A program made the translations under genes and the position numbers. The notes beneath the pieces were generated by a model that was given only the letters and a program-made list of their open reading frames with translations, had not been told where the DNA came from and made no database searches. DNA of 64,000 bases from contig JAUCBJ010002610.1 in NCBI GenBank assembly GCA_032718475.1, positions 1 to 64,000 on the forward strand. Reading direction: 5' to 3'. Below, piece by piece: positions 46,401-64,000 of the stretch. This stretch comes from Nemertoderma westbladi (Eukaryota > Animalia > Xenacoelomorpha). Numbering within the stretch: the first letter of the stretch is position 1; each line of letters opens with the position of its first letter.

Positions 46401-49400
46401 TAACTCACCCTCATATCTCTCTAGGAACCCAAATCAGTTAGTTACTCACCCTCCTATCTCTCTAGGAACCCAAATAAGTTAGTAACTCACCCTCATATCT
46501 CTCTAGGAACCCAAATCAGTTAGTTACTCACCCTCCTATCTCTCTAGGAACCCAAATAAGTTAGTAACTCACCCTCATATCTCTCTAGGAATCCAAATAA
46601 GTTAGTAACTCACCCTCATATCTCTCTAGGAACCCAAATCAGTTAGTTACTCACCCTCCTATCTCTCTAGGAACCCAAATAAGTTAGTAACTCACCCTCA
46701 TATCTCTCTAGGAATCCAAATAAGTTAGTAACTCACCCTCATATCTCTCTAGGAACCCAAATCAGTTAGTAACTCACCCTCATATCTCTCTAGGAACCCA
46801 AATAAGTTAGTAACTCACCCTCCTATCTCTCTAGGAACCCAAATAAGTTAGTAACTCACCCTCATATCTCTCTAGGAACCCAAATAAGTTAGTAACTCAC
46901 CCTCATATCTCTCTAGGAACCCAAATAAGTTAGTAACTCACCCTCGTATCTCTCTAGGAACCCAAATCAGTTAGTTACTCACCCTCCTATCTCTCTAGGA
47001 ACCCAAATAAGTTAGTAACTCACCCTCATATCTCTCTAGGAACCCAAATCAGTTAGTTACTCACCCTCCTATCTCTCTAGGAACCCAAATAAGTTAGTAA
47101 CTCACCCTCCTATCTCTCTAGGAACCCAAATAAGTTAGTAACTCACCCTCATATCTCTCTAGGAACCCAAATAAGTTAGTAACTCACCCTCATATCTCTC
47201 TAGGAACCCAAATAAGTTAGTAACTCACCCTCGTATCTCTCTAGGAACCCAAATCAGTTAGTTACTCACCCTCCTATCTCTCTAGGAACCCAAATAAGTT
47301 AGTAACTCACCCTCATATCTCTCTAGGAACCCAAATCAGTTAGTTACTCACCCTCCTATCTCTCTAGGAACCCAAATAAGTTAGTAACTCACCCTCATAT
47401 CTCTCTAGGAATCCAAATAAGTTAGTAACTCACCCTCATATCTCTCTAGGAACCCAAATCAGTTAGTTACTCACCCTCCTATCTCTCTAGGAACCCAAAT
47501 AAGTTAGTAACTCACCCTCCTATCTCTCTAGGAACCCAAATCAGTTAGTAACTCACCCTCCTATCTCTCTAGGAACCCAAATAAGTTAGTAACTCACCCT
47601 CATATCTCTCTAGGAACCCAAATCAGTTAGTTACTCACCCTCCTATCTCTCTAGGAACCCAAATAAGTTAGTAACTCACCCTCATATCTCTCTAGGAACC
47701 CAAATCAGTTAGTTACTCACCCTCCTATCTCTCTAGGAACCCAAATAAGTTAGTAACTCACCCTCCTATCCCTCTAGGAACCCAAATAAGTTAGTAACTC
47801 ACCCTGTTATCTCTCTAAACCCAAATCAGTTAGTTACTCACCCTCCTATCTCTCTAGGAACCCAAATAAGTTAGTAACTCACCCTCATATCTCTCTAGTA
47901 ACCCAAATCAGTTAGTTACTCACCCTCCTATCTCTCTAGGAACCCAAATCAGTTAGTAACTCACCCTATTATCTCTCTAGGAACCCAAATCAGTTAGTAA
48001 CTCACCCTATTATCTCTCTAGGAACCCATATCAGTTAGTAACTCACCCTCATATCTCTCTAGTAACCCAAATCAGTTAGTTACTCACCCTCCTATCTCTC
48101 TAGGAACCCAAATAAGTTAGTAACTCACCCTCATATCTCTCTAGTAACCCAAATCAGTTAGTTACTCACCCTCCTATCTCTCTAGGAACCCAAATCAGTT
48201 AGTAACTCTCCCTCATATCTCTCTATAGGAACCCAAATCAGTTAGTAACTCACCCTATTATCTCTCTAGGAACCCATATCAGTTAGTAACTCACCCTCAT
48301 ATCTCTCTAGTAACCCAAATCAGTTAGTAACTCACCCTCGTATCTCTCTAGGAACCCAAATCAGTTAGTAACTCACCCTATTATCTCTCTAGGAACCCAT
48401 ATCAGTTAGTAACTCACCTTCATATCTCTCTAGGAACCCAAATCAGTTAGTAACTCACCCTATTATCTCTCTAGGAACCCATATCAGTTAGTAACTCACC
48501 CTCATATCTCTCTAGTAACCCAAATCAGTTAGTTACTCACCCTCCTATCTCTCTAGGAACCCAAATAAGTTAGTAACTCACCCTCCTATCTCTCTAGGAA
48601 CCCAAATCAGTTAGTAACTCTCCCTCATATCTCTCTATAGGAACCCAAACCAGTTAGTAACTCACCCTCCTATCTCTCTAGGAACCCAAATCAGTTAGTT
48701 ACTCACCCTCCTATCTCTCTAGGAACCCAAATAAGTTAGTAACTCACCCTCATATCTCTCTAGTAACCCAAATCAGTTAGTTACTCACCCTCCTATCTCT
48801 CTAGTAACCCAAATCAGTTAGTTACTCACCCTCATATCTCTCTAGTAACCCAAATCAGTTAGTTACTCACCCTCCTATCTCTCTAGGAACCCAAATAAGT
48901 TAGTAACTCACCCTCATATCTCTCTAGTAACCCAAATCAGTTAGTTACTCACCCTCCTATCTCTCTAGGAACCCAAATCAGTTAGTAACTCTCCCTCATA
49001 TCTCTCTATAGGAACCCAAACCAGTTAGTAACTCACCCTCGTATCTCTCTAGGAACCCAAATCAGTTAGTAACTCACCCTATTATCTCTCTAGGAACCCA
49101 AATCAGTTAGTTACTCACCCTCCTATCTCTCTAGGAACCCAAATAAGTTAGTAACTCACCCTCATATCTCTCTAGTAACCCAAATCAGTTAGTTACTCAC
49201 CCTCCTATCTCTCTAGGAACCCAAATCAGTTAGTAACTCTCCCTCATATCTCTCTATAGGAACCCAAACCAGTTAGTAACTCACCCTCGTATCTCTCTAG
49301 GAACCCAACTAAGTTAGTAACTCACCCTCATATCTCTCTAGGAACCCAAATCAGTTACTAACTCACCCTCATATCTCTCTAGGAACCCAAATCAGTTAGT

Positions 49401-52400
49401 TACTCACCCTCCTATCTCTCTAGGAACCCAAATCACTTAGTAACTCACCCTCCTATCCCTCTAGGAACCCAAACCAGTTAGTAATTCAACCTCCTATCTC
49501 TCTAGGAACCCAAATCAGTTAGTTACTCACCCTGTTATCTCTCTAAACCCAAATAAGTTAGTAACTCACCCTCCTATCTCTCTAGGAATCCAAATAAGTT
49601 AGTAACTCACCCTCATATCTCTCTAGGGACCCAAATAAGTTAGTAACTCACCCTCGTATCTCTCTAGGAACCCAAATCAGTTAGTAACTCACCCTATTAT
49701 CTCTCTAGGAACCCATATCAGTTAGTAACTCACCTTCATATCTCTCTAGGAACCCAAATCAGTTAGTAACTCACCCTATTATCTCTCTAGGAACCCATAT
49801 CAGTTAGTAACTCACTTTCATATCTCTCTAGGAACCCAAATCAGTTAGTAACTCACCCTGTTATCTCTCTAAACCCAAATCAGTTAGTTACTCACCCTCC
49901 TATCTCTCTAGGAACCCAAATCAGTTAGTAACTCACCCTGTTATCTCTCTAAACCCAAATCAGTTAGTTACTCACCCTCCTATCCCTCTAGGAACCCAAA
50001 TCAGTTAGTAAATCACCCTCCTATCTCTCTAGGAATCCAAATCAGTTATAGTAATTCACCCTCCTATCCCTCTAGGAACCCAAATCAGTTAGTAACTCAC
50101 CCTATTATCTCTCTAGGAACCCATATCAGTTAGTAACTCACCTTCATATCTCTCTAGGAACCCAAATAAGTTAGTAACTCACCCTCATATCTCTCTAGTA
50201 ACCCAAATCAGTTAGTTACTCACCCTCCTATCTCTCTAGGAACCCAAATCAGTTAGTTACTCACCCTCCTATCTCTCTAGGAACCCAAATCAGTTAGTAA
50301 CTCACCCTCATATCTCTCTAGGAACCCAAATCAGTTAGTAACTCACCCTCATATCTCTCTAGGAACCCAAATCAGTTAGTAACTCACCCTCATATCTCTC
50401 TAGGAACCCAAATCAGTTAGTAACTCACCCTCATATCTCTCTAGGAACCCAAATCAGTTAGTAACTCACCCTCGTATCTCTCTAGGAACCCAAATCAGTT
50501 AGTTACTCACCCTCCTATCTCTCTAGGAACCCAAATAAGTTAGTAACTCACCCTCATATCTCTCTAGGAACCCAAATCAGTTAGTTACTCACCCTCCTAT
50601 CTCTCTAGGAACCCAAATCAGTTAGTAACTCACCCTCATATCTCTCTAGGAACCCAAATCAGTTAGTAACTCACCCTCCTATCTCTCTAGGAACCCAAAT
50701 CAGTTAGTTACTCACCCTCCTATCTCTCTAGGAACCCAAATCAGTTAGTAACTCACCCTCCTATCTCTCTAGGAACCCAAATCAGTTAGTTACTCACCCT
50801 CCTATCTCTCTAGGAACCCAAATCAGTTAGTTACTCACCCTCCTATCTCTCTAGGAACCCAAATCAGTTAGTAACTCACCCTCCTATCTCTCTAGGAACC
50901 CAAATCAGTTAGTAACTCACCCTCATATCTCTCTAGGAACCCAAATCAGTTAGTTACTCACCCTCATATCTCTCTAGGAACCCAAATCAGTTAGTAACTC
51001 ACCCTCATATCTCTCTAGGAACCCAAATCAGTTAGTAACTCACCCTCTTATCTCTCTAGGAACCCAAATCAGTTAGTAACTCACCCTCATATCTCTCTAG
51101 GAACCCAAATCAGTTAGTAACTCACCCTCATATCTCTCTAGGAACCCAAATCAGTTAGTAACTCACCCTCCTATCTCTCTAGGAACCCAAATCAGTTAGT
51201 TACTCACCCTCCTATCTCTCTAGGAACCCAAATAAGTTAGTAACTCACCCCCCTATCTCTCTAGGAACCCAAACCAGTTAGTAACTCACCCTGTTATCTC
51301 TCTAAACCCAAATCAGTTAGTTACTCACCCTCCTATCTCTCTAGGAACCCAAATCAGTTATAGTAACTCACCCTCATATCTCTCTAGGAACCCAAATAAG
51401 TTAGTAACTCACCCTCCTATCTCTCTAGGAACCCAAATCAGTTAGTAACTCACCTTCATATCTCTCTAGGAACCCAAACCAGTTAGTAACTCACCCTCCT
51501 ATCCCAGAGGAACCCAAACCAGTTAGTAACTCACCCTCCTATCCCAGAGGAACCACTGTGGATCACAGATATACAAAATGTTGCCGCCACTGCCGCGTCC
51601 ACTGCATTCCCGCCGCTCTGTAGAATTTTCGTACCGACTTGGGAACATTGAGTGGCGTCGCTCGCTACTGCACCGTGCGGGAGAACCTAGAACCATAGTG
51701 AGTGATCAGTGGACATGGACAGGATTAAATTGGATAATATAAAATAAAAAATTAATGAAAGTATAGGCCTATTCTTATAAAATAAACGGAGCGAAAATGT
51801 CGTAATTCAGTGACATGATCCCCCCCCCCCCCCCCCCCTCAAGTTTTCTACAGGTTGGGAAATAGTTGAGTTATGGGCATTCGAATGTTGCATGTAGGCC
51901 TTAGGCCTATTTGTTTCCTATGTATATGTACTAGTATTATGAATATTATGTATTTATTAGATAGAATAAATTGCCTGCACCAGATGCAAAATCATTAAGA
52001 TTTGTAGAAAAATTTGGGGTGGGGTGGGGTGGGGTGGGGGTGGGGTGGGGGTGGGGGTGGGGTGGGGTGGGGTGGGGTGGGGTGGGGTGGGGTGGGGTGG
52101 GGTGGGGTGGGGTGGGGTGGGGGGGGGGGGGGGGGGGGGGTATCACTGAATTACGACACTATATTCCAGGACATGGTGTAAACTGTTAAGTAGTGAGACA
52201 TTACTACTTGCTGACTTGGACTAGGAAATTAAAATTATATTAGAAAATATAAATATTTCATGATTTATTGATTTAAACTCAATTCTTAAACATTAAATAA
52301 CTAATCTTACCAGGATGGTTGATTATATTGGTGGATCAATGATTGATTAACATACAATTTATATTTCAAAAATAAATATATACCGGTATAGAAATAATAA

Positions 52401-55400
52401 TAAACTCACAGGTGGAACTCCTATAACATTTTCCACTATAACACCGATTGTCAAGGCAACTGCGAGAACTATAGAAGAGCCTATAATCACATAAAGTTGA
52501 GTCTTTTCGCTGCCACATTTAGAATCCCATAAACCTCGTCCTTCTGAGCTCAACGGAGTTTTCTCAGACAGATCGCTGTTGCGTGAAGCCAAGGGCAATG
52601 TGTCCGCTACAATTAAAACAGTTAAAACAAATTAGATAGTCTGTCTGACTAATCGGGTTTACCAAAATATCACAGAATCAAAATGGCATTGATAAGATGC
52701 TAAAACATATGAGATAATTGCTATAGGCCTAAGTAAAAATATTCATCAAATTGTCTGCCAGTCTGCCACTCCGACGCTCTACGTATGTTGTTAGGCTCTT
52801 AATAAATGTATACAGTCAAATGGTGTAATCATATACACCATTTCCCATAATACAACAACCATGTTTAGCAAGTCGGAGAGCACCCCCACGCCCCCCCCCC
52901 CCCCAATTTTTTCAAATTTCACTCAAATTTCAATTTCAAATTTGGAATTTTTTGGTGAAATTCAAAACAGTTTTCCGATTCTGGAGATAAAGGCGGTTCC
53001 AATGGTATCCGGATTACAGGTATAACCAAAAGACGAAAAATAAAGTCAATAGAGATGGTAAAATATTGCTTAAGAGGCGTTTTAATGGCTTGTTGTATCG
53101 AAATGCGAAATGGAACAGAAATTGAAAAATCCGGCTCTGCCCGCAGTAAGAAAAGTGGGTACGGGTAGGACTAAAAACCAAAACGGACCCAAACGGCAAC
53201 GGGGAAATACGTAGTTATATCGGATTTATTCATATCACAATGGTGTGGCGAAAAGATCTGGAAATACAATTTACCACTTAATTAATTAATTAATTAATTA
53301 AGTAAGCCCTAAAACCTTAATTGATTTCCTGCATGCCTAGATGTGCTGATACGATGGTACCGGTACAAACTACAAAGGACTTTCAGTTTCTCAGTATAAC
53401 ACCATACACCGTGTGTAGGTTCAGTTTGGGTGAGTTCCAATATTTTGATGATTAAATCGCCACAATGGAGGTTAAACTTTTTACTACTGTAGTATGCTGC
53501 CGCTATGGTCGCTATGGAGAAAACAATCGCCACAACGGAGGTTATACTGTCTGACCGGGGTTGCCGCAAGTTGAGGAAACTATTTCAGTGAAATAGGCCT
53601 ATTTTATTTCCGTTTTATTCACATTCTTCGTAAATTGTATTTCCAGCCACACCGTTTGCCGTTGTGATATTAATATGTCCAATACCGGTCGCCTGTATGG
53701 AATCCATCCAAAAAGTGCGCCGGACAGCGCGCCGACCAATATTTATGCGCTCCGCGCGCCGATGCAATTTCGAAGCAAACCCTGCGTCAACGAAAATTTT
53801 AAGCGTGCCGCACATTGCTGCCAATGTCAGTACTGCTGTACCTGTCCCTGCTGCCCTGTACAGCAGTAGCCTAACCACTGAACCATACAACAGAAAAAAG
53901 AAAGGCGATTGAAGCGAGTCGAAATTTTTAAACAGCTAATGCAATTTTTAAGGCACTTCCGTAATTGTTAAACTAACAAATCGGCGCCGGTTTTTATTTT
54001 TGGGAGCGCCACGCGCCAAAGCCGGCGCGCTTTACGATTTTCGAGCGCGCCACGCGCGCTTTTATTGCAAAGCGCGCTGGATTCCAGTCTGGACCGGTCG
54101 TATAACTCCGAATTTCCCCGTTTGGGTATCGTTTGTGTCCGTTTGGATTATAGTCCTACCGACTGACCGAGAAAAGTTGTGGAACTAATTTTAAAATCAC
54201 TCAATCAATCATCATTTCTAAATTTGAAAAATATTAGGCCGGGCCGGGAGTGCGGGAGATGGTGTATAAACTATAAAGCAGCAAGTTATCCCTTAGGAGA
54301 GTACAGAGTACACTGATACCTATTTGGAGCCGTTTCCCAGCTTGCGGATACCGGGATATGCAGTATGATATGGATAACATTCGGATAACAATCAGATAGC
54401 TGTATAGGCATAAACAAAACTAAAGTATCACATGCTTCAAAGGCTGAAATGGAACTAAACGTAATTATAATTGACAACGTGAACATCACCACAAGGCACT
54501 AGGCAGCAAGCAGGCAAGGGGGCATTAAAGTTTGAGAAACGGTGTGACAGAAGAAAAATCGAATTTGTGTCAAAATTTAGAAAGAGTGAGAAAACCAAAT
54601 TGATTCTAGTCGAAAAACGGGATGAAATGAAATACGGGATGACATTATTTTCATTATATGTCTTTATGTAGGAATGGCAGAATGGAAAGATAGATAGATA
54701 TACTGAACTGTGAGTGAAGGATGATTTAGATTGCAGGGCAATTGTATCAGCATTACACAGTTCTGCAGTTACAATCTTTAACTATCAGACTATTATTGGT
54801 ACAAACAACAATCCAGCAATCAAATCAACCACCTCCCCAAGCAGCGCCAGAGATTACTAGCAAAAATAAACTATCACCAGTCAGCTGGTCAGTCTGTGTT
54901 TGTGTTATTGATTCTCATTCTCACCTTATTTACGATTTATTACAATATATAGCTGTATTGGTTAGAACTTATAATATGCCACTCCACTACCGGTATAAGC
55001 AATAAGTATAACCTGGCCCTTAGGTAGTTAGGCCTAACATTTCAGGATCTATGGAATGACCATAGGACTTAATGACGCAGAACGATATAAGCCATATTCA
55101 TATTCAATGAGTTAGTTAAGTTGCCAAATATGGCAACAACGGCTTTATATCTGTATATAGTTGCCAAATCAGGCAATCAGAAATGTTGCCAGATTTTGCT
55201 TGGTTGCCAAATATGGCAATCACAATCATGTGCAATGTATCATTGTACAATGGCCAAATTTGGCCATTGTACCTAACCTAACTGACATTACAAATACAAA
55301 TTACGAGAATAAGAACAGAATGATGTTTATGAATACAGGAATATGAAGATTGCATGTAAAACTAGGCCTGCCAAAATTGGCAGTACTATCAATTTTGGCA

Positions 55401-55925
55401 GTAAAACTACCAATATTGTAACATGCCAAAATTGGTAATGTGCCCGACTTACAACGGAAGGCAGTAGGCAGTAGGCAGGTAGGCCTATGTTTGGTTGATT
55501 CTGTTTGTTATAACAGTGCCGCATGCCGCGGTGCCGGTATATTTTCCTGCTAAAGCTAAAGTCATGGTTGTTGGTTTCTTATTACTGTAACGGCAGACCG
55601 GCTGACCGTACTGCAGTCTGGCAGTCCAGTCAGCCAGTAGGCCCTATACAGTAATACTGTAATAGGCCTACAGGTGCAGGTATTCTGGTATTCGGCAGTT
55701 CGGTATACAGGCTGACAGGCAGTGAGGCAGGCAGGTCAGCAGGCAGGCAGGTATAGGTATATTATCAGATTATAGGAGTATACTGGTATAGGATAGGATA
55801 GGGCTGTAGCCGCTGTAGGGCGACCAGCCGACAGATCAGCAACTGCAGATAAACAAATACAGAAATACCGTACTGGAACTTCAGAACTTACCTGCACCGT
55901 CACCGGCGCCTTTATTTGAAGCCAT
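8805..55925 (-). CDS. GGT: Gamma-glutamyltransferase / glutathione hydrolase (GGT7-like), 5 coding exons found, 3' part not found in window
   Basis: Spliced translation: MASNKGAGDGA|ADTLPLASRNSDLSEKTPL...YVIIGSSIVLAVALTIGVIVENVIGVPP|VLPHGAVASDATQCSQVGTKILQSGGNAVDAAVAATFCISVIHSGSSGIGG|GGFMIIAPAKQGPIETLDFRTVAP...LTKS|GVKSIAVPGELLGLESAHMRYG. It contains the GGT motifs GAVASD, GGNAVDAA, SGIGGGGF, DFRxxAP and AVPGELxG. Phases 1/0/2/0 match across all four junctions. GGT7-like is inferred from the long cytoplasmic N-terminus before the TM helix. Confidence 0.93.
9943..12845. repeat. Minisatellite of mixed 21-bp (AGATAGTAAGTCGTGTACACT) and 13-bp (GATAGTAAGTCGT) units in GGT intron 4
   Basis: Directly visible; degenerates toward the right end (12710-12845). 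Confidence 0.98.
13419..13542 (-). CDS. GGT: GGT coding exon 4 (GGFMII...DFRTVAP...LTKS)
   Basis: Acceptor TTTTTATGTTACAG, donor TCT|GTTAGT; its first base completes the GG|A glycine codon of exon 3. Confidence 0.93.
13704..13768 (-). pseudogene. tRNA-Thr(UGU)-like sequence, probably a SINE head or tRNA pseudogene
   Basis: Minus strand reads GCAATGGAAAGCGCACTGGGCTTGTAAACCGGAGGTGGTGAGTTCGAGACCCACC, with a CTTGTAA anticodon loop and a GTTCGA B-box/T-loop. No proper acceptor stem is seen. Confidence 0.55.
16034..18618. repeat. 49-bp tandem repeat (GTGTATGATTTAGGTTGCATCATTTGGTAACGCATCATTCCGTAACCGT), ~52 copies
   Basis: Directly visible, constant unit length, only point variants. Confidence 0.98.
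19953..22418 (+). CDS. FBXO41: F-box only protein 41 homolog (N-terminal C2H2-like finger, coiled coil, F-box, LRR-like C-terminus), single coding exon, nested in GGT intron 3
   Basis: 821 aa ORF. CHRCLGRTNFHSYHALKHHLEYEH, ALFLVMGYLDIRHLLHSGAVCREW...RHPALW, GCLEPGIESLL, EVIWALGAGC, LELDH and HVGISDYF all match FBXO41 as I recall it. Candidate acceptor TTTTGTTCAG at ~19921; AATAAA at ~22570, ~22624 and ~22634. Confidence 0.93.
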   Translation: MSQHSSRLSYYPTDVNSPQHKLANISYTASPSASAMRTDERPHLPAPVGQRPQLYANTPPPVPPTWRGTEDDRHLLSAPVGQRPQRYAITPPPMPAWRGSDDYRTMRSETVRNRSPCSEPEYSCHRCLGRTNFHSYHALKHHLEYEHSPESGGARSLGGIRSLGGTRSVGGSPSVEGAPPRTPWWRENINLRYKTGDSNHVISLLDEEAKQLERRLTRAKQTGLNSRLLEPNYKLSSPLWLNRTTPLDNKSQSASPTVAKDRRPPSKVQTWLATSVHSGNSTPLSRQRDKHLASSDEFYALTSQYLDTIKRLRTELSSREQQLTATRMRLEQVAQERESDTSTRREMATNHDLVATLSQQLTLKERQLMEKEKQSAQLQDNLLDLAKKETWAKDQLKDYIDRLIDRTKRAEDEAQYFREQWQELHGSSPPTSLDYQSDPAPVSHPSGAPSSAHPPHYYAAGDETTPTPSSKPASLSSYTPDVGEFPFSNRVDNPELQRVRKKALFLVMGYLDIRHLLHSGAVCREWLTLSRHPALWRYVTLSRSRICSRFIKGLSRWCTQIRSLCLHGLRGRKQRAGEPHSEYLRELQGCLEPGIESLLRACHQSLTAVVIVDCGNIVTDRVVWLLGCHTRNLEKLTYMSSYEPPGAEVIWALGAGCPKIWYMRVNALFPCHQPYKFDDECLRMVAQCWPLLKVLSIGGPAVTLNGLLGVVSACQKLQFLELDHIFEMTESSAEKLCNQGLYALETFEITFTKITPQCIMYVNSACPHLSSLSIHVGISDYFDNVDDPKNVETYNRLINDLHELNQQSVMKNVLRIKSDYG
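23124..23344. mobile_element. Small MITE-like element
   Basis: Inverted termini CATGTGAAGAATACCAG ... CTGGTATTCTTCACATG (17 bp perfect, extending imperfectly). No clear TSD. Confidence 0.55.
24078..24283 (+). mobile_element. Non-autonomous Helentron/HINE-like element (short copy)
   Basis: GCGAGCCAC...CCTTAGCG head, hairpin AAAAATGTTCCCT-accgc-AGGGAACATTTT, (GTCT/GTCG)n microsatellite, 3' GGCC-gcta-GGCC hairpin followed by TTTCTAGTT. Confidence 0.55.
25615..26556. repeat. ~940-bp imperfect palindrome (foldback-type non-autonomous element)
   Basis: 25815-26013 is the inverted copy of 26072-26273, and 25618-25760 is the inverted copy of 26405-26554. Confidence 0.85.
27456..28202. mobile_element. 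Non-autonomous hAT element (MITE), 747 bp
   Basis: TIRs TAGGGATGTGGCGAATGTC / GACATTCGCAACATCCCTA; perfect 8-bp TSD GTATATAT (27448-27455, 28203-28210); subterminal CCGCAT/ATCCGC repeats. TAGGGATG ends and an 8-bp TSD are typical of Ac-like hAT elements. Confidence 0.9.
28780..29060. repeat. Degenerate C-rich repeat (TTCCCCGCATTGTCCCAGTCC-like units)
   Basis: The motif CCCCGCATTGTC recurs at ~28787, ~28915 and ~29005, among many TGTCCC subunits. Confidence 0.7.
29085..30700 (+). mobile_element. 5'-truncated, frameshifted CRE-clade-like non-LTR retrotransposon (RT C-terminal half + zinc knuckle + restriction-like endonuclease)
   Basis: WYADDASAAG (RT active site), GYFPEPTKTYL, RFLGGYIG, LPVRHGGIGL, then HALSCKSGGLIIKRHDE and RADLVARGVW...FDIAIINADATSY...FTPLV (RLE). 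Frame breaks near 29850-29975. The first ~140 aa of the listed 439-aa ORF are flanking read-through. Confidence 0.85.
31571..34618 (-). pseudogene. Transposase split into three overlapping ORFs (33098-34618, 32416-33162, 31571-32419)
   Basis: Motifs VCQKFILTTLG, HYRYEHAPNRRYLP, SADLQKVIMLP, WLDNCGAQNKN and HSSMSADNLH. Frame changes near 33150 and 32450. Confidence 0.8.
33543..34496 (-). repeat. 30-bp in-frame tandem repeat (QGDSVELGMA) in the transposase N-terminus, ~32 copies
   Basis: Unit AGTTCGACCGAGTCACCCTGGGCCATTCCA; the shorter variants are also multiples of 3. Confidence 0.95.
35631..51554 (-). repeat. ~16-kb satellite, 41-bp unit (minus strand GTGAGTTACTAACTGATTTGGGTTCCTAGAGAGATAGGAGG), roughly 390 copies, derived from the GGT exon3/intron3 junction
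   Basis: The array runs continuously into the last 20 nt of exon 3. The exon-proximal unit repeats GGTTCCTCTGGGATAGGAGG|GTGAGT exactly. Confidence 0.98.
51535..51686 (-). CDS. GGT: GGT coding exon 3 (VLPHGAVASD...SGIGG)
   Basis: Acceptor TTCTAG, donor GGAGG|GTGAGT; 152 nt, ends in phase 2. Not in the ORF track. Confidence 0.95.
52015..52140 (+). repeat. (GGGGT)n microsatellite plus poly-G
   Basis: Directly visible. Flanked by short inverted motifs GTCGTAATTCAGTGA (~51800) / TCACTGAATTACGAC (~52143), also seen near 25162. Confidence 0.95.
52410..52606 (-). CDS. GGT: GGT coding exon 2 (cytoplasmic tail + transmembrane anchor)
   Basis: Acceptor TTTAATTGTAG, donor CCT|GTGAGT; encodes hydrophobic helix YVIIGSSIVLAVALTIGVIV. 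Confidence 0.88.
52833..54270. mobile_element. Degenerate element with long imperfect inverted repeats in GGT intron 1
   Basis: 53160-53222 is an inverted match of 54100-54162; TACACCATTTCCC (~52834) pairs with GGGAGATGGTGTA (~54254). A GCGCGC-rich segment at 53700-54090 may be a nested element. Confidence 0.5.
55892..55925 (-). CDS. GGT: GGT coding exon 1 (MASNKGAGDGA)
   Basis: ATG at 55925 and donor CAG|GTAAGT. The 34 nt give phase 1, matching the 2 leading nt of exon 2. Assigned by phase and splice consensus only. Confidence 0.7.
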
Positions 55926-56144
55926 TGCAAATGTGTTCAGGCACCCGACAGCCCGACCGGGTATCAGCAAGTTAAGACACAATCACTGAATTATGTTGAT
56001 TTTAGTACATAGTCCTGTCAGCCTGTTGTCAGATAGTACCGGTACTGTGATACAGTACTACAGTAGTACTGTAGTAGGCCTAACGCTGTACCGTACTGCC
56101 GTATGCTATGCTGGACTGGTAGCCTATCCTATATACTGATACTA

Positions 56145-56900
56145 TTCGACTGGGCGACCGACAACAGACTGAGTTTGAACTTTGACAAGAATAAATCAAT
56201 TTTATTTGGGACACATCAATGTCTAGTCGACAACTGTGAATTGAAAGTATTTTGTAATGGGATCCACATAGAACAGCAAAAATCTATTAAATACTTGGGT
56301 TGTTATTTAGACGCTGACTTTTCTGGAGATACCATGGCATCGCATGTCATTACAAAGGGGAACAAGACACTATGAAATTTATTTACAGACATGGGGCAGA
56401 TTTAGACGGTTATACACGTCGTCTTCTATGTAACGCTCTCATACAACCCCACTTGGGTTTCGTTTCCTCCTGTTGGTATCCAAGTGCTTCTAAACGGCTA
56501 CAGCTGCAACTGCAAGCACTGCAAAGAAAATGTATTCGTTTTTGTCTAGGTCTCGGAAGTAGAACGCACATTGGCCAAGAGCATTATAATGAAATCTCAT
56601 GGCTTCCGATAGAATCTCGCATCGATCATCAGCTAACAGCCAATCATGTATCGTATAACACAGTCGCTACCTTCCTCGTATCTCTCATCATTATTGGTCC
56701 AGTTCAACTCTGTATCGGTTAATCTCTGACATGGATGTACTCGCGATGTGCCTTGCGACGAACTATAACGAAGTGAATGCTTCTCGTTTCTAGGGCCGTT
56801 GATATGGAACTCGCTACCATTGGATGTAAGAAACTCTGTCTCCCTGGAAACGTTCAAACACAAAGTCAAGAATTACTTTACTCGACAAACTGGCAATGAA
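56145..56900 (+). mobile_element. 3' fragment of a CR1/L2-group LINE (end of RT and C-terminal region), frameshifted
   Basis: DWATDNRLSLNFDKNKSILFG...IKYLGCYLD... then FIYRH...LLCNALIQPHL...WYP...LQRKCIRF...WLPIESRI, and FLGPLIWNSLPLDVR...FKHKVK near the 3' end. Confidence 0.85.
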
Positions 56901-56989
56901 GGATAACTCGATTTTGAATTAATAAATTTGCAAGTTATGGTTTCCAACTTTTAATTATTTTTTGCGTTAAATTTCAGTTGTAATTATTT

Positions 56990-57500
56990 GCACTATTTGC
57001 TGCTTTATTTTATTTATTTTTTAAATTACATACTGTCTACCATATTTTAATCCGTAATGTTTTATTACGTCATAACTATTTTTTTTATTTTCTTTTTACC
57101 TATGTTTTACATATTTCTATTTTACGACCTATTTGCTGCTTTATTTTCAAATTACGGTCTACCATACTTTATTCCTTGTGTGTGTATCTCTGTACTTAAT
57201 AACTATTGCTATATTTATTGCCTATGTTTTACATATCTCGATTTTATGACATATTTGCTGCTTTATTTTTAAATTCTTTCTGTTATATTTTTAAATTTCT
57301 AACTGAACTACGGTCTACCATATTTTATTTATTTGTTCTGTTATATTTCTATCTGCACCGGAACTTCATTTTTTATTTATTTTTTAATTACATACTATGT
57401 CTTCCATATTTTATTTCTTTGTGTCAGTCGGTACATCATAACTATTGCTATTGCTATATCTATAACTTAATTTTCTATTGTTTTCCATATTTCGTGTTGC
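56990..57500. repeat. Degenerate AT-rich repeat, 3-4 copies of ~120-150 bp
   Basis: TATTTGCTGCTTTATTTT at ~56995, ~57130 and ~57252; GTCTACCATA recurs with similar spacing. Confidence 0.6.
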
Positions 57501-58810
57501 TGTTATATATTTTTAATTACGTACAGTAGGTACTTGGTAATTGCCAAGTTATAGACTGGGATCTCTCTCGCAAATAACATTTTACCCAGCTGATGCTCCT
57601 TTCACAGAATACAACACAAACTCTTTCCCTGGATTCAATGAAATTGAATGTCTATTACAGTAAGTTCCTGGGAAATCTGGCTTCCTGAATGACTTTTTTG
57701 TTATACAGTAGTGTACATGTGCAGTTTTGCGCTTGAAAAATTGCCTTTTTAATAATTTATTGTGAACATATTATTCTATTGTTAGTTGGCTCCCAGACAC
57801 GCGTAAGAGCGCCTGGCTTGCTAGTGCTGAAACAATTGGAACATTGACTACTAGGGTCTAGGGATAAATTCCTTTTTACACAGAGTTCAAGTGTTAACTG
57901 TAGGTTTGCTTAGGAAAATAGTCTATTTGCTATTCGTGTGCAGCCAACTGTACTAGCGCCCCGACGAGTATCCCTTACAGCATGAAGTAAACGAATGCCT
58001 GCCGGCCGACCTCATGGTACTTGATATGTCTTAACGCGCTAAAAAGCGCCGCAGAAACCTGTCGATAAACATAAATGCAAATCGAACAAATACTAAACAT
58101 CATTTGATAAATTAAGAGTTTATTTCATTGGAATATTTATGTTTACAAATTGTGAAATGCTTTTAAATATGAACATCAAATGAATAAATTTCAATAGTAA
58201 ATACTATCAATAAAGCTACTCTATTACAGTATTACAATCTTTTCCATCAGAAAAATCATGGAGAATGCTCTGTAAAACGATTCATTATACAACGTTATTT
58301 TCACTCTGAACTGAATATACAGTATCTACTGTATATTGTTATTCGTATATATGTTTACTGTCACCTCACAATGAACCGTTTAATAGGCAGATAATCCTTA
58401 CATGATTTCACCCATTTTTCCATTCCTTATAGAGTTTGTAACACTTTCTACCTACCAACTGAGTATAAACTCCTTACACTAGTTCGACCCCCTCTCTCCA
58501 TTCCTTACATGATTTCAACGACCAATCAAAATATAGCACATTAACCAATCCCAGGCACCAATTCATGATGTGTTCCTACTAGTAGTGTAAGGATTGGGAA
58601 TACGCCACCGGGTGATGGCAGAGTGAGTTATGTACTTTAAAACAACTTTCTGACTTTTGCATTGGCAGCTTGGCATCGATGTCATAGAAGTCCACAGTCA
58701 AAATACCAGTACTCAAAAATATTATTAGTATTCTCCATTCCTCGCTCCTCAGCGGTTAGTACATTTTGCCCGTAGCGCTAATGCAGTGCGTTACCAAAAG
58801 TCGAGGTTGT

Positions 58811-58982
58811 CATTAATTTTTGTGATCCCTTACAATTGTTTGTGGCCCTCATTAATGTTTGTGATCCCTTATTATTGTATGTGGCCCTCATTAATGTTTG
58901 TGATCCCTTATTAATGTTTGTGTCCCTTATTAATGTTTGTGATCCCTTATAATTGTTTGTGGCCCTCATTAATGTTTGTGAT
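58811..58982. repeat. 39-bp tandem repeat (dimer of ~19-20-bp subunits), ~4.5 copies
   Basis: CATTAATGTTTGTGATCCCTTATTATTGTATGTGGCCCT. Confidence 0.9.
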
Positions 58983-60480
58983 TGTTCGCGCTTTCAGACC
59001 TTCAGCAGTTTAACCTGCCAAATTTAGATGTCTTTAGATTATAAATAGACTTTAGCATATGACGAGTATTTGATGCACTACATTAGCCGAAGCCAGTCTA
59101 TGCGCGACCATTCACCCGCTGGATATACCCGGGAGACTGGATTCGGAAGCTTTGACCTTATTGCGGTGTAGGCCTACTGTATTATTCGACTGATCGTTAA
59201 TATATAATTTCTGACAAATATTATTCACTTTCGGGAAATATCAACAGTTCCTTTTGGACGTGGCGCTCTAAATATGTAAACAGAGTTATGACTTACACTA
59301 GACACAACGGGATGGCTATGGATTCACGTATAAAGCGCATTCTTTAGGAGATGCTTTGTTATCAGTCACAATCATGCACACTACCGCACAATGCTGCACA
59401 CCGATCTGCCGACCTTCACTAATTTTAGTCACATATAAAGAGAACAACAACCGACACATGTAGTGCCTATGAAATAGCATTAGATTCACTCCAAAACCAC
59501 TTTAATGAAGTCGCAATTGCTATATGTAACCGGTCTCTTACCTTCAGTATATCAAGAAGATTGGGGGTTTTATGATTATTTATCGATATTATCCAAATAT
59601 AATAATATTCCATCAACTGATATAATTAATAACCGACAGTGAATAGCAGTAAAAATGCGGTGTTTGTAGTTGACAATATGATTTGCATTGATATGCAGTG
59701 TGTTGATTTGACATGCAGTGTGGTTTGATTTGATTTGATAACGGTTATACGTTTCTATGACCAAAGCCTACTAATGTTTTGCTAAAGTCTGAAACTTCCA
59801 CAGAAGTACAGAAGAATCCTAAGCCGGTGTTCAGGGCTTAGAAAGATACACACACACTGACTGACTTGCATGAGTTTCTGTATACAATCTCCAACACAGA
59901 GTGAAAACCGCTCTGATTGGTCGACCGAACAAAGAACGAACAAAGAACAAAGAAAAAGTTACACGTGGACACAGCTGATAGATGTCGTCATCGGAGTTCC
60001 GATGTTTAGAGTATTTGGCTTATTGCGACATAAAATCGCTAGTTATGTCCGCTAAAGTACACATACAGAAGAAATGGCTTTTTATGTCCACTAAAACACC
60101 GGTACAGTAAGGAAACGGCTTTTTATGTCCGTTAAAACAACTACAGAGTACTTTGCGGGGAAAATAACCAGCTAATTCCGCAAAAGCCTTTACACCGCTC
60201 CCAGAAAATGGGATTTAATTCTATAAAATATAAAAAATCACAGTTTCTAAAATATAAAAATACTCTAAACAGTTAGTCCTTCTTACGCGGACGGCGTTTA
60301 CGCAGTTTTTTGAGGCTTGCAAGAGTCCTTTTCTCTTTGGGGCGAGCCACTTTATTAGGAGGGCTATAACTCCTGGGTGAAGGGTGCAATACAATTGCAT
60401 CAGAAGGTTTAGGATTACGATCGGTGTATCCGCCGGTCGAGGTACCTGGTTGATCGATATCAACTTCAGTGGAGCGAGGT

Positions 60481-61944
60481 CTAACGGCCTTTAGGGCGCG
60501 TCTTAGGACAGCAGCTCCTACTGGTCCCTGACGAGTCGTCTGGACAATAGCGGTAGGTGGACCGTGAGTGGTGAGGTTTAATGGTTCTTTCCAGCTCGCG
60601 TTCTCGGGCTCGATATTCGTAGGGCCGTCGAGATACTTCCTGTAACTCAGGGTGCGAGTTAATAAATAAATCGCCATACTCAGGGTCTTGACGGATGAAA
60701 TTGATCAAATGGTATGAATTAATATCGTTAGGATTGACGTTCCTGAGATATTTTCGAACAAATTTGGTGGAAATACACTCACCAACACGCTTCATTAGTT
60801 CGTAACTCGGTGTGCGTATTTTTTGTTCAACAGATGTGAATAGATAAGGATGGAACGCGTAAACTCCCTCGTAGGCGCGTCCAGGGTAATAGCGATGGCG
60901 TGACTCACAATGCAAATCCGCGTTCGCTTCCCAAGCTCGGATGTAGCGCAGGGTAATCATCTCATCTACGCTTTCCAAATCGCGGTTAAAAGGGCAATTA
61001 AAACTGGCATGTCCTTTAAGTTGACAGTGGTGGCAGTGAGTCATAAATTGGGAGCAAACTGCAAAAATGTGCGAGTTATTGAGTCTGCAATACGCACAAT
61101 AGATCTCCATCATCGGTTGTTCGTGGAAATAGGAGCAGGGTACGTCTGAGTCCATAGGGGTGAAATGATCTCTTAATGCGCATAATCGGCAACGTTTTCG
61201 AGAAACATAGTTGGCGTGCCGATAATCGTATGCGGTGAGACATTGTGGACCTTGATACCATTCCAAGACGTAGTCGTTATCGCTGCTCCGGGGCGCTGTA
61301 GGCTGAATCTCCTCAGATTCTAAGCATATTGGTTCGTCTTCCAATTGCATCGCTGAGATAGGTGCGGCTGTCTCCGCAAGCGAACCCACTGTCTGAACTT
61401 CCACGACAGAATAACCCGTGGGTATTCGAGGTCTTTGTATAACAGATGAATGTAAGTTCTGTATACAAACGTCCTTGAAAATGGCGAATCCCGCGCTGTC
61501 TAACTTCTCTGCAGCTGAGTCTCTTAGGCTGAGTTTGGTCAGAGCGCGGTCCTTGAACTGACTATCAACGTTACGGAACGGAGTCAGAAAGCGCCTAAAA
61601 CATTCGAAGCGGATGAATTTATTGTGTTCATCTAGCTTGGCGAGTTTGGTTCCAAGTATTAAGGGATGGGCGCGTATGGTACGACTGCACACATCGGCTA
61701 GCCAACCGGCAAGTGCGGCGTTTTCAAAGATCGTGTATATAGCTAAGGAGGGACGAAGTGGAACACTCATAAAGCTATACACGGCGCCAGGTGCGGTCAA
61801 TGGTCCGTCAAAGTATAATCGAGAATAATGATCTCCGTATACTTGTTGGTAGTTGATAGGATTTCCAACTTTGAAATTCCATCCGTATTCTTGAAAGGCA
61901 AGATGTCCGATGGAGGTTCGTTGTACTTTAGTAATGCCGCTGGG
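60481..61944 (-). CDS. Uncharacterised ORF with a Cys/His zinc-finger cluster; probably the C-terminal part of the exonuclease-like ORF at 63227-64000
   Basis: About 487 open codons of non-repetitive sequence containing CRLCALRDH...C, CAYCRLNNSHIFAVC and CHHCQLKGHASFNC (CX2CX4HX4C knuckle). The listed GTG start lies inside the inserted element. Confidence 0.6.
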   Translation of the reverse strand, partial: PSGITKVQRTSIGHLAFQEYGWNFKVGNPINYQQVYGDHYSRLYFDGPLTAPGAVYSFMSVPLRPSLAIYTIFENAALAGWLADVCSRTIRAHPLILGTKLAKLDEHNKFIRFECFRRFLTPFRNVDSQFKDRALTKLSLRDSAAEKLDSAGFAIFKDVCIQNLHSSVIQRPRIPTGYSVVEVQTVGSLAETAAPISAMQLEDEPICLESEEIQPTAPRSSDNDYVLEWYQGPQCLTAYDYRHANYVSRKRCRLCALRDHFTPMDSDVPCSYFHEQPMMEIYCAYCRLNNSHIFAVCSQFMTHCHHCQLKGHASFNCPFNRDLESVDEMITLRYIRAWEANADLHCESRHRYYPGRAYEGVYAFHPYLFTSVEQKIRTPSYELMKRVGECISTKFVRKYLRNVNPNDINSYHLINFIRQDPEYGDLFINSHPELQEVSRRPYEYRARERELERTIKPHHSRSTYRYCPDDSSGTSRSCCPKTRPKGR

Positions 61945-63228
61945 TGTGGGGCGAGCCACGAAGTTGGCGGAGCCTTAGCGAATTGACACTGTTAGGGGGT
62001 GGGTCAATTTATGCAAATAGTTGTCGTCGTCGTCGTCGTCGTCGTTGTCGTCGTCGTCGTTGTCGTCGTCGTCGTTGTCGTCGTCGTTACGATTTTGACA
62101 TGCTAATAACTTTGTCGGATTTAAAGCTGCCAAGTTGAAAATTTGTAGGTATCAATATGAGCAAAAGTTGAGATTTTTGAGAGACTTTCAGACACCATCA
62201 GTGCAATGGTCTCCCGCTAGAGGGCCACATGTCTAAACATTAAATGGCCACCCATTTCTTTGCTTTTAATCCGTTTAAGCTGAAACTTGGGAAGTATGTA
62301 CTAGACCATTAGCTGTAAATTTCAAAGGAGGCTAATCTGTCTGCAGTTCTCCAGTCTGCCGCTAGAGGGCGAAATGTCCCGAATGTGAAATTATTCTTCC
62401 ATTTAGTTGTTTATGATCTGATTACGCTGAAACTTGTCATATATGTACTAGATGACATCCTGAGTCTTTGTGTGGATTGTAATCGGTCCGAAGTTTTCCA
62501 GTCTCCCGCTAGAGGGCCACATGTCTAAACATTAAATGGCCACCCATTTCTTTGCTTTTAATCCGTTTAAGCTGAAACTTGGGAAGTATGTACTAGACCA
62601 TTAGCTGTAAATTTCAAAGGAGGCTAATCTGTCTGCAGTTCTCCAGTCTGCCGCTAGAGGGCGAAATGTCCCGAATGTGAAATTATTCTTCCATTTAGTT
62701 GTTTATGATCTGATTACGCTGAAACTTGTCATATATGTACTAGAAGACATCCTAAGTCTTTGTGTGGACAGTAATCGGTCCGGAGTTTTCGAGTCTGCCG
62801 CTAGAGGGCGAAATGTAGGAAAGTGATAACCTTTGCGAATTCCTTGATCTTAATCTATTTAAGCTGAATTTTGGAATATACAGTACCGGTATGTACTAGA
62901 CCACATGCCTCGTCTTTGTGAGGAAGGTGATCGATCCGTAGTTCTTTAATATGCCGCTAGAGGGCTAAATGTATGAAAGTGAAAACCTTCCAACATTTCG
63001 TTATTTATGATCCGTCAATCGGAAACTTGGTAGATATGTAATAGACCATAGGATGTGGCTTTGTAGGGAAACTAATCCTTCCTTCTTCAGTTACCCAGTC
63101 TCCCGCTAGAGGGTTAACGTTTTCCGGGAAAATCTTCTCCTATGTTTTTATAATCCTTTCGAGTTGATACTTAGCATTAACTCATTTCACGTGCTGCGCG
63201 AAGGCCCCACTTCGTGTATTTGCATACA
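61945..63228 (+). mobile_element. Non-autonomous Helentron/HINE-like element with an internal ~146-bp tandem array
   Basis: Head TGTGGGGCGAGCCACGAAGT...CCTTAGCG shared with 563(-); AATTGAC/GTCAATT hairpin; subterminal inverted TATGCAAATA (62010) / TATTTGCATA (63217); (GTC)n microsatellite 62022-62086; seven CCGCTAGAGGG-containing units from ~62215 to ~63113. Confidence 0.7.
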
Positions 63229-64000
63229 TAGTGCGGAAGAAACCTCGGCCTTCTGCCCAGGGAGCAATCAGCTGAGTATCGACGAAAGGGTATGGAATGT
63301 TTTCCATGTTCCGAAAGTCGTTTTGGAGATCGCCATAAACAGCTGAGCCGATTTTAAGGATTCTTTCGTTAAACAACACCTCGAGCACAGGCTGGGGTAA
63401 CATCGATCCATCGATACCCATGGCCGGTTTGCGCTCGGTGTCGGTGACGTAACGCTGCGCGAGTTCGAATTGTCCATGTCGGAGTTTCTTTTGTGTCTCG
63501 GTAAGGGTCTCAAAAGAATAATCAATCACATCGGAACACGCTCGAGTAAATACGTGGGTAGAACCAGCTAGTCCTCGTATGTGTATCATTCTCGTACTTC
63601 CCAGTTCTCCAACCGGAACGCTACCTTCGTTATCGTAAGTGACAACTCCATACATCTCGATAACGTTAAGAGTCTCATTCCACTCTTTAGTGGCGTTTTC
63701 TAGAGTCATTCCCACTGGATGCCACAAGGTAGCGCATTCGCTAGCATTAGGTAGATCTCTATACTTTAAATATTGCGTATTATATGTCTCTACATCTCCA
63801 TATCTTTCCACGTCGAGATTCCAGTGTACTAATCGAGTTTTGATGAATCCATCAAGATTATACGGAGGTATTGTCTCTTTCTCTATCCTGGAAACATTAT
63901 AGGGTTTTCGAAATGAGTTTACTTTAACTAACTGATCAAGATGTTTCTGCAGTTGTTCGAGTTCGACAAGATCGAGAGGATTTATTAGTGGTAGAAACCT
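63227..64000 (-). CDS. DEDD/DnaQ-type (WRN/EXD-like) 3'-5' exonuclease-domain ORF, open to the window edge
   Basis: The frame has no stop from 64000 (RFLPLINPLDL...). Motifs: ExoI-like VVTYDNEG, ExoII-like LPQPVLEVLFNERILKIGSAVYGDL, then FVDTQL. Confidence 0.6.

Follow-up and report, generated by a model that had tools for sequence, protein, structure and literature searches.

A dead copy of an abundant protein-coding repeat family with an RNase D-like segment and zinc knuckles, likely carried by an unclassified transposable element

The 64,000-nucleotide stretch of Nemertoderma westbladi DNA analysed here (the window) ends in one dead member of a protein-coding repeat family that is present in high copy number and is probably borne by an unclassified transposable element. 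A non-autonomous repeat element of 1270 bp has inserted antisense into the gene, and this copy also lacks 11 bases; it is doubly dead, through insertion and frameshift, and constitutes genome debris. Because neither end of the carrier is defined, the term transposable element is applied here on copy number, divergence and selection alone. The family has no detectable relatives in the databases searched. Coordinates of its features are given in Table 1.

Two long open reading frames (ORFs) were identified on the minus strand, ORF A (63182-64000, 272 aa) and ORF B (60481-61959, 492 aa). Their lengths far exceed chance, an open frame of 492 codons having a probability of about 5e-11 ((61/64)^492, our own arithmetic). 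ORF A is open at the window end, so that its N-terminus falls outside the window; at its other end, its frame reads 11 codons past ...FFRTMYANT into the inserted stretch and stops at 63182. These two ORFs and the repeat-bearing stretch between them had been noted in the original prediction, and both ORFs and the repeat were confirmed. Excision of 61944-63213 joins the two frames, and the protein then reads ...FFRTMYANT/PSGITK... across the break, with the border taken from contigs that lack the insert. The family ORF is single and intronless and exceeds 830 aa.

Insert-free copies were found in contigs from public DNA runs, comprising sets X1, X3 and X4 (three studies, one organism label) and X6 (a second organism label). 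Joints from 61943 to 63214 occur in X1, X3 and X6. Diverged copies in X4 and X6 are joined from 61936 to 63216 or 63218, with 9 or 11 other letters at the joint, which gives the same length as the window minus the insert; one 420-nt contig reaches 335 nt to one side of such a joint and 76 nt to the other. Every insert-free form preserves the reading frame. ORF A and ORF B are thus one gene split by an insertion, as had been proposed, and uninterrupted copies exist as DNA in these runs. The borders originally suggested (61945-63226) lie about 12 bp off on one side; with the corrected borders, excision still restores the frame. The borders given here are uncertain by +/-4 bases, since GTGT is present at both ends; these four bases fit either end, and microhomology and a 4-bp duplication are both possible.

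Table 1. Features of the family copy and its insert in the window
Feature	Position	Strand	Evidence
Upstream part of family ORF	63214..64000	-	Open at window end; 7/9 listed copy differences synonymous
ExoII/'DTQ' segment (ORF A residues 203-247)	63260..63394	-	NCBIfam, own profile, hhalign
Inserted non-autonomous repeat element, 1270 bp	61944..63213	+ (antisense to gene)	Contig joints, repeats, other copies
Downstream part of family ORF (ORF B frame)	60575..61943	-	8/12 listed differences (60661-61597) synonymous, plus a synonymous one at 60616
Three Cys/His knuckles	60994..61191	-	Pattern search
Site of 11 missing bases, frame shift and premature stop at 60481	60574..60575	-	Contigs carrying the bases
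True C-terminal tail of family protein	60273..60574	-	15/19 listed differences synonymous in this frame
Block with ~tenfold higher summed depth than rest of ORF	60174..60449	-	Depth tables
Region just past stop	60003..60271	-	14-bp perfect inverted repeat and tandem units

An intact gene from which the 1.3-kb stretch is spliced in frame, as a phase 2 GT-AG intron running from 63227 to 61940, would leave some of the same traces: GT at 63227-63226, a pyrimidine-rich stretch, AG at 61941-61940 and frames that join. We find this scarcely credible, however, given that the stretch is missing from other genomic copies and is itself a dispersed repeat, and that the window copy is frameshifted further on regardless.

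That frameshift is a second lesion, overlooked in the original prediction. The 11 bases at 60574/60575 are present in one gapped contig and 26 clipped contigs (12 in X1, 9 in X3, 2 in X4 and 3 in X6), and the deletion is private to the window copy or its subfamily. Below this site, differences between copies track the other frame; over the tail, synonymous changes make up only 3/20 of those listed when read in the ORF B frame and 3/19 in the third frame. The tail ends in a basic run resembling a nuclear localization signal (NLS), KKLRKRRPRKKD, followed by a stop at 60273-60275. The protein had been thought to end in its Cys/His clusters; instead, about 170 residues follow these in the ORF B frame and about 100 more past the frameshift.

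The block of raised depth covers the last ~58 codons and ~100 bp past the stop. At 60279, 60318 and 60355 within it, nearly all of the depth (98-100%) carries letters other than those of the window, and the block is likely common to a younger, more abundant derivative. Past the stop, the inverted repeat (60258-60271 and 60003-16) encloses three 39-41-bp tandem units (60032-60150), and X1 depth drops to ~40k at 59944-60035. This region may be the 3' UTR or an end region of the carrier element, whose 3' border is roughly bracketed by depth at about 60003-60174. The 5' part of the carrier lies upstream of 64000, beyond the window.

Across 3.8 kb, contigs at 85-99% identity numbered 16204 in X1, 5881 in X3 and 383 in X4. 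The second organism label (X6) contributes 54 contigs. Single coding sites are covered by 30-55 distinct X1 contigs, and contigs that leave the alignment continue into unlike sequence, indicating many dispersed, diverged copies; summed depths are not copy numbers. Among the differences between copies that fall in the coding frame, 31 of the 41 listed are synonymous (expected share 0.34 for transitions, P=5e-8), these being drawn from the best-supported 40 of 459 and 40 of 170 variants and not from a random sample. By this measure, purifying selection acts on the family as a whole over a single uninterrupted frame, free of introns, that ends at 60273. Given this excess of synonymous differences and the thousands of diverged contigs, the gene most likely belongs to a selected, high-copy, transposon-borne family. 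The suggestion that it is cargo of a large mobile element fits as to mobile origin, for which high copy number, divergence and purifying selection all speak.

One stretch of ORF A is related, as far as sequence statistics go, to the RNase D/WRN-type DEDDy 3'-5' exonucleases, and it is the sole statistically supported part of the domain. Only two of 18950 NCBIfam models matched, both of them RNase D (TIGR01388, E=0.0032; NF008089, E=0.017), scoring 16.8 and 14.1 bits where the cut-offs stand at 299 and 516. We also built a profile from 30 PF01612 domains (proteobacterial RNase D/Pol I), which gave 14.6 bits; none of 500 shuffles reached this value, the best scoring 4.9. Residues 203-247 align to profile positions 61-105 with the conserved Asp aligned. 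Smith-Waterman comparison with Escherichia coli RNase D (z=4.4, matched by 1/300 shuffles) gave an alignment that continues across the break, and among the Atlas neighbours of ORF A, 22 of 30 are PF01612 clusters (best 0.92). For the DnaQ-like domain that profile searches had been expected to reveal, hhalign returned a match over the ExoII segment (P=4.5e-5, probability 69%), whereas PF01612 itself went unmatched in Pfam, both for the ORFs at E up to 1 and for four sub-pieces at E up to 10.

The remaining exonuclease motifs fare differently. Of the ExoI and ExoII motifs originally read upstream of the insert, ExoII with its FVDTQL stands on these statistics. The ExoI candidate, D-N-E at residues 123-125 of ORF A, fits D-x-E by eye, given an insertion of ~35 aa, but its sub-profile does no better than shuffles (111/1000 reach the real score), and a forced global alignment sets ExoI at ~165-169, with the first Asp missing and away from D-N-E. 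The likeness to a WRN/EXD-type domain is similarly confined to ExoII. An ExoIII sub-profile was reached by 229/1000 shuffles, and in the Y-x3-D candidate seen by eye at ORF B 61-65 the Tyr is kept and Ser replaces the Asp in the window copy. A single-sequence AlphaFold2 model had a mean pLDDT of 29.3 and was unusable for the fold. With no visible ExoIII Asp in the window copy and ExoI unplaced, the domain is possibly catalytically inactive. Cellular DEDDy exonucleases include RNase D, WRN exonuclease, MUT-7 and EXD1. The family protein shares with this group the helix-strand segment of ExoII and the 'DTQ' motif after it, which align with E. coli RNase D and the 30 proteobacterial domains; unlike them, it falls short of PF01612, with ExoI and ExoIII unsupported, and is fused to knuckles, multicopy and without orthologues found.

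Beyond the insert, the ORF B frame encodes a possible exonuclease-like remainder, a linker, the knuckles and a region without known domain. All three of the predicted Cys/His clusters were recovered, two as variants at ORF B 257-275 (CX2CX4HX9C) and 288-302 (CX2CX5HX4C) and one as the exact canonical pattern CX2CX4HX4C at 309-322. Pfam reported only zf-CCHC_3 here, below cut-off (E=0.34), and the Atlas neighbours of this part are CCHC clusters (0.80-0.86). CCHC zinc knuckles of nucleocapsid type occur in retroelement Gag and LINE ORF1 proteins. The tight cluster of one canonical and two near-canonical knuckles is comparable to these, and by that analogy suggests binding of single-stranded nucleic acid, although the family protein has no capsid or RRM part and carries its knuckles mid-protein, downstream of the nuclease-like domain.

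Searches for relatives of the protein yielded none among 1.84 billion representative proteins, none among metagenome contigs and none for either ORF in two scans of IMG/VR. Pfam matched nothing in ORF A and only the weak knuckle hit in ORF B, with no transposition enzyme (reverse transcriptase (RT), DDE transposase, integrase, Rep/helicase or tyrosine recombinase) in either. It also matched nothing in 51600-60480, where 66 stop-to-stop frames reach 50 aa and the longest 41 were scanned. Of the RT, integrase, Rep and capsid genes that the original prediction proposed to look for in the adjoining sequence, none was seen in the window downstream of the gene.

The insert is itself a dispersed mobile repeat. 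Twenty-three X4 contigs begin at 61945 with flanks that are unlike and T-rich, and another contig, 374 nt long and with a depth of 5286, stops at 63216. On the plus strand it consists of a left flank (61944-62019), (GTC)n (62020-62090), a spacer, tandem units of ~146 bp (62195-63113) with a higher-order pair (292 bp, 98% alike), and a right flank (63114-63213). By its module order, which we likened to a published description and not to a sequence, it resembles the Helentron-type non-autonomous elements (HINE). HINE/DINE-1 elements such as Cg_HINE of the Pacific oyster are described with a left flank, a GTC-type microsatellite, a variable spacer, a ~150-bp satellite-like array and a short right flank with a palindrome, and the insert further shares with that description a dispersed, high-copy distribution, T-rich flanks in its other copies and, possibly, the absence of a clear target duplication (PMC7492417). 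It agrees less well with the same description in other respects. Subterminal inverted repeats are not evident in the window copy, in which the first 200 bases show no terminal match to the reverse complement of the last 200; they are seen only with the variant 5' end of one X1 contig (place 61957), which mirrors ~20 bases of the 3' end. Nor is the site a TT dinucleotide, T/T being absent from all five possible cut sites, and the hairpin at the 3' end (8-bp stem, 6-nt loop, in the minimum-energy fold) is no more stable than shuffles (z=-1.0, 30/200 equal).

Exonuclease-like ORFs on mobile elements are known from bdelloid rotifers, in which LTR retrotransposons (Juno, Vesta) and the Athena/Terminon Penelope-like elements carry an RNase D-like DEDDy 'ORF3' whose catalytic motif can be altered (DEED) and which in some has a Cys-His-Cys motif; 3'-end processing or mere RNA binding has been proposed as its role (PMC5408684, PMC6431247). 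Compared by these descriptions, both cases involve an exonuclease-like ORF of the RNase D/WRN group on a multicopy mobile element, apparently as its last ORF. They differ in that ORF3 gives strong HHpred matches whereas only the ExoII segment is detectable in the window ORF; fusion to three CCHC knuckles does not figure in those accounts of ORF3; the rotifer elements are low-copy in small genomes whereas the window family is very abundant; and no RT, LTR or pol gene was seen beside the window ORF (PMC5408684, PMC6431247).

A second precedent bears on whether the ORF could be the transposase of a cut-and-paste DNA transposon, which we consider unlikely. The long intronless ORF with Cys/His motifs after a nuclease-like part and an NLS-like tail would suit a transposase, and deletion derivatives that keep one end in common could account for the abundant 3' block. 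Dada DNA transposons likewise have a large single ORF, and as described carry a DEDDy domain inside the transposases of two species, there combined with the C-terminal CCHC-type motif that all share; a DDE triad and an N-terminal CCCC finger also mark these transposases (PMC3706591). Pfam, however, finds no transposase family, and the sole significant likeness is to RNase D itself. Dada elements, moreover, have snRNA or tRNA genes as their insertion sites and are present in few copies, whereas the window family is very high-copy and no small-RNA gene lies nearby, the 64-kb window, which takes in the 3' side of the element, containing no Rfam family at gathering score and no tRNA (ARAGORN); the number and spacing of the knuckles also differ from the Dada motif printed in that account (PMC3706591). 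That the locus is one pseudogene of a host gene family that has expanded greatly, such as one of EXD1/MUT-7-like small-RNA factors, is distinctly improbable, even though ExoII resembles the RNase D/WRN/MUT-7 group and the copies are under purifying selection. Thousands of diverged contigs and a 3' block some tenfold commoner form the pattern of an interspersed repeat, and the gene is intronless. Small-RNA factors of the host are conserved across animals, yet no homologue was found among the 1.84 billion representative proteins. Possible loss of catalytic residues would have a parallel in EXD1, which has lost its own (cited in PMC5408684), but abundance and divergence of copies argue against the single lineage-specific host nuclease raised in the original prediction. 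An origin as part of an endogenous virus, also raised there, or as the cargo of a mobile element resembling a giant virus is very improbable: the nearest Atlas clusters of ORF A are phage 3'-5' exonucleases and a PHROG exonuclease family matches faintly (E=0.22), but the taxa in Atlas come from few records and say nothing of origin, the IMG/VR scans gave no relative, no capsid, polymerase or integrase was seen in the window, and known endogenous viruses reach nothing like this copy number.

For the transposable-element family that we favor, we infer that an intact protein would enter the nucleus, where its knuckles would hold single-stranded RNA or DNA of its own element and its exonuclease-like domain would trim, or merely grip, a 3' end; it would then act as an accessory or Gag-like factor in the element's replication cycle. 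A bolder reading, rather unlikely though worth stating, makes the ORF the hallmark protein of an extremely abundant and so far undescribed lineage of mobile elements, in which the one recognisable module, an RNase D/WRN-like domain that is possibly catalytically inactive, is fused to three nucleocapsid-type knuckles and a nuclear-targeting tail. Elements of this lineage would then either process or shield their 3' ends in a novel manner or encode a protein that imitates small-RNA factors of the EXD1/MUT-7 type and so weakens silencing by the host. On this reading the protein would be conserved under selection in at least two organism labels and yet missed by every protein database searched.

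Annotators should mask the locus as a repeat-derived pseudogene and not call it a host gene, and the nested insertion adds a dated case in which a Helentron-like element with a satellite array has landed inside another repeat. Exonuclease-like ORFs are so far known on mobile elements of few lineages (rotifer retroelements and some Dada), where their role is not experimentally established. Candidate uses of a 3'-5' exonuclease fold to an element include end processing, nucleic-acid chaperoning and interference with small-RNA defence, and a very abundant family in which an exonuclease-like domain is joined to nucleocapsid-type knuckles would lend itself well to studying what such a domain is used for.

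The two halves of the gene, ORF A and ORF B (see table), are parts of an intronless, multicopy ORF under selection, and the copy in the window is dead. Contigs of four public runs were placed on positions 60200-64000: X1, X3 and X4, which are DNA runs from three studies under one organism label, and X6, which carries a second organism label and whose kind was guessed (as RNA, though it may be DNA). Contigs from X1, X3 and X6 join 61943 directly to 63214, skipping 1270 bases, with 4 letters that fit either side. In more diverged copies 9 or 11 other letters link 61936 with 63216 or 63218, exactly the window's length there minus the insert, and one X4 contig of 420 nt crosses the joint with arms of 335 and 76 nt. 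Without the insert, the window's sequence reads ...FFRTMYANT/PSGITK... across the joint in one frame. Uninterrupted copies, which the original prediction had proposed to look for, are thus present as DNA in contigs of X1, X3 and X4, with further such contigs in X6; they belong to at least two subfamilies, all of them frame-keeping. The same prediction had set the borders at 61945-63226, a guess made to keep the frame; the insert is real, but the contig joints place its limits at 61944-63213 (+/-4), borders that also preserve the frame. The refuting condition set out there, element limits that fail to restore the frame, is therefore not borne out.

Coordinates of the gene halves, the repeats between them and the features on the 3' side
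Feature	Positions	Strand	Description
ORF A	63182-64000	minus	272 aa, open at window end
ORF B	60481-61959	minus	492 aa
Tandem units, ~146 bp	62195-63113		between ORF A and ORF B
(GTC)n run	62020-62090		between ORF A and ORF B
Abundant 3' block	60174-60449		~275 bp: last ~58 codons and ~100 bp past the stop; summed depth ~10x the remainder of the ORF in each of X1, X3 and X4
Inverted repeat, 14 bp, perfect	60003-60016 / 60258-60271		starts two bases past the family stop codon
Three tandem units, 39-41 bp	60032-60150		enclosed by the 14-bp inverted repeat

A GT...AG pair, from 63227 to 61940, would splice in frame; an ancestral GT-AG intron is nevertheless ruled out, since some DNA copies have no insert at this site and the 1.3-kb stretch is itself a dispersed repeat. 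The stretch is an insertion. Twenty-three X4 contigs begin at 61945 with unlike, T-rich flanks, and a contig of depth 5286 ends at 63216. Read on the plus strand, the insert comprises a left flank, a GTC-type microsatellite, a spacer, a satellite-like array and a right flank of ~100 bp ending in a hairpin; a higher-order pair of 292 bp, 98% alike, lies between the two ORFs. This order of modules is like that described for Helentron-associated non-autonomous elements (HINEs) of oyster in excerpts of PMC7492417. One X1 contig, moreover, has a variant 5' end mirroring ~20 bases of the insert's 3' end. Three observations count against a HINE: the insertion site here is not T/T, clear subterminal repeats were not found in the window copy of the insert, and its terminal hairpin scores no better than shuffles. 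On balance we consider the insert probably HINE-like.

The 3.8 kb are covered at 85-99% identity by 16204 contigs in X1, 5881 in X3 and 383 in X4, with some 30-55 distinct X1 contigs at single coding positions. Differences between copies are mostly transitions. We took the best-supported 40 of 459 differences at 60200-64000 (27 coding, 13 in the insert) and, from a second comparison, the best-supported 40 of 170 (20 coding, 6 of them already in the first set). Scored in the family's reading frames (see the next paragraph), synonymous changes account for 31 of the 41 distinct sites in this non-random sample of best-supported differences, against an expected share of 0.34 for transitions (P=5e-8). 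The case for a high-copy gene family under selection is strong but not exhaustive.

The selected frame changes near the end of ORF B. Below 60575, 15 of 19 best-supported differences are synonymous in the frame whose stop lies at 60273-60275, as against 3/20 in the frame of ORF B and 3/19 in the third. At 60574/60575, one gapped and 26 clipped contigs, drawn from all four runs, have 11 bases more than the window, a gain that shifts the ORF B frame into the conserved one. The switch of synonymous frame together with the 11-base difference therefore indicates that the family protein is longer by ~100 residues and that its C-terminus is basic (KKLRKRRPRKKD). Two lesions break the window copy, the insertion and a frameshifting deletion; the ancestral product exceeds 830 aa, with an N-terminus beyond the window. 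Contigs of other copies also diverge inside ORF A, at 63809 (9 in X1, 3 in X6) and at 63502 (5 in X1, 3 in X3), and there may be further small rearrangements at these points in the window copy or its subfamily.

Searches for relatives of the protein returned little. Pfam gave no match to ORF A or to four sub-pieces, and zf-CCHC_3 alone (E=0.34) to ORF B. There were no matches to ORF A among 1.84 billion representative proteins (phmmer), none among PDB sequences at E up to 10, and none in word-indexed protein searches with ORF B, at near and longer lengths, or with the C-terminal tail against longer proteins. A protein-pattern scan of metagenome contigs yielded 29 pattern matches and no relatives, an exact-match search of metagenome contigs with 25 bases of the abundant 3' block found nothing, viral contigs scanned for both ORFs held no relatives, and PHROGs gave faint matches alone. 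The ~270 residues C-terminal of the knuckles match nothing.

More specific comparisons point to an exonuclease. In a language-model atlas, used as a lead only, clusters of PF01612, the DEDDy 3'-5' exonuclease family, make up 22 of the 30 neighbours of ORF A (best 0.92). Among 18950 NCBIfam models, two RNase D models alone match ORF A (E=0.0032 and 0.017), residues 203-247 corresponding to model positions 60-104. A profile of 30 PF01612 domains of proteobacterial genomes, built for testing the exonuclease hypothesis alone, scores 14.6 bits on ORF A and 12.6 bits on a read-through in which X marks the break, compared with 4.9 for the best of 500 shuffles; it too matches residues 203-247, where it aligns the ExoII Asp and a 'DTQ' motif comes next. 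An hhalign comparison gave P=4.5e-5 and a probability of 69% over 51 columns, and a Smith-Waterman alignment to Escherichia coli RNase D, which crosses the break, gave z=4.4, equalled by 1 of 300 shuffles. These signals are mutually consistent, and as judged from sequence comparison an RNase D/WRN-like segment is quite likely.

The DEDD motifs read in the original prediction fared unevenly. Its ExoII segment is borne out by the profile, NCBIfam and hhalign, but the ExoI and ExoIII sub-profiles do no better than shuffles, the real scores being reached by 111 and 229 of 1000, respectively. The ExoI that we picked by eye, D-N-E at ORF A 123-125, needs an insertion of ~35 aa and is contradicted by a forced global alignment, which puts the site near residues 165-169 and lacks the first Asp. 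The by-eye ExoIII motif has its Tyr, but Ser at the Asp position, a replacement that the original prediction had pointed out. A full DEDD site is not supported, and the exonuclease-like domain may be inactive. Single-sequence structure prediction gave a pLDDT of 29. Three CCHC knuckles, one of them canonical and the other two nearly so, lie in ORF B (residues 257, 288 and 309), and the atlas neighbours of ORF B are CCHC proteins (0.80-0.86). An RNase D-like ExoII segment combined with three knuckles is supported.

Copy number, divergence, a selected intronless ORF and occurrence under a second organism label are features typical of genes that mobile elements carry. The 5' part of the carrier lies outside the window, and no reverse transcriptase (RT), transposase, integrase or Rep was detected by Pfam in the family ORF, nor in any of the 41 longest frames at 51600-60480, out of 66 with at least 50 aa. 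No poly-A or simple-repeat tail was found 3' of the family ORF, which, with the lack of an RT in the last 830+ residues, rules out a LINE ORF2. We considered whether the abundant 3' block might be an LTR: it is a coding stretch, and neither a polypurine tract nor TG..CA ends can be seen. Its high depth, nearly all of which departs from the window's sequence at three positions, suggests a younger, more abundant derivative sharing the 3' end of the family ORF. The best-supported differences between copies in this block are nonetheless mostly synonymous. The 14-bp inverted repeat does not mark the ends of a MITE, its arms differing ~30-fold in depth. Since depth is down to ~40k at 59944-60035, the 3' border can be bracketed roughly to 60003-60174. 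The carrier is unlike Dada in behaviour, because small-RNA genes are absent from the window. Summed depth in X1 is 130k-790k at 59300-59667, downstream of the element; this stretch is highly repetitive, and the copy thus sits amid other repeats.

The window overall is eukaryote-like and rich in minisatellite arrays. One of them, at 35630-51543, extends over 16 kb (41-bp unit, 387.5 copies, 93% matches) with a very strong negative GC skew of about -0.52 to -0.55. A 5.7-kb array at 2846-8563 (44-bp unit, 126 copies, G+C ~69%) is the source of many spurious long minus-strand ORFs, and arrays of related 21/34/55-bp units at 9943-12837 and 1531-1787 share a common core, TAGTAAGTCGT. The array at 16033-18619 (49-bp unit, 52.8 copies, 96% matches, no indels) has a strong negative AT skew. 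From a 39-bp tandem array at 58771-59004 (4-5 copies, ~91% alike) comes a repetitive 63-aa minus-strand ORF that is probably non-coding. An uninterrupted plus-strand ORF of 821 aa at 19953-22418, lies in an island of 60% G+C, and its residues 504-541 match the F-box-like domain PF12937 above the cut-off (E=1.4e-6). Three abutting minus-strand ORFs at 31571-34618 may be another mobile-element remnant; the first matches DUF7869 (PF25273) just under the cut-off (25.3 bits vs 26), and the last is largely a 30-bp repeat (33541-34495) whose Pfam matches look like repeat artefacts.

Element-borne DEDDy-like ORFs are already known (PMC5408684, PMC6431247, PMC3706591); the first of these papers treats ORF3 of the rotifer retroelements Juno, Vesta and Athena, a candidate parallel for the position of the family ORF. 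A word search of open-access full text, itself weak evidence of absence, found no element that joins an exonuclease domain to several zinc knuckles. Judging by its basic tail, the intact family protein would be nuclear; single-stranded RNA or DNA of the element would be bound by its knuckles, and the exonuclease-like domain would trim a 3' end. Should the domain indeed lack the acidic residues, it would only hold that end, as excerpts of PMC5408684 propose for rotifer ORF3s and EXD1-type inactive domains. The locus is genome debris of an ordinary kind; its family, an orphan, merits attention.
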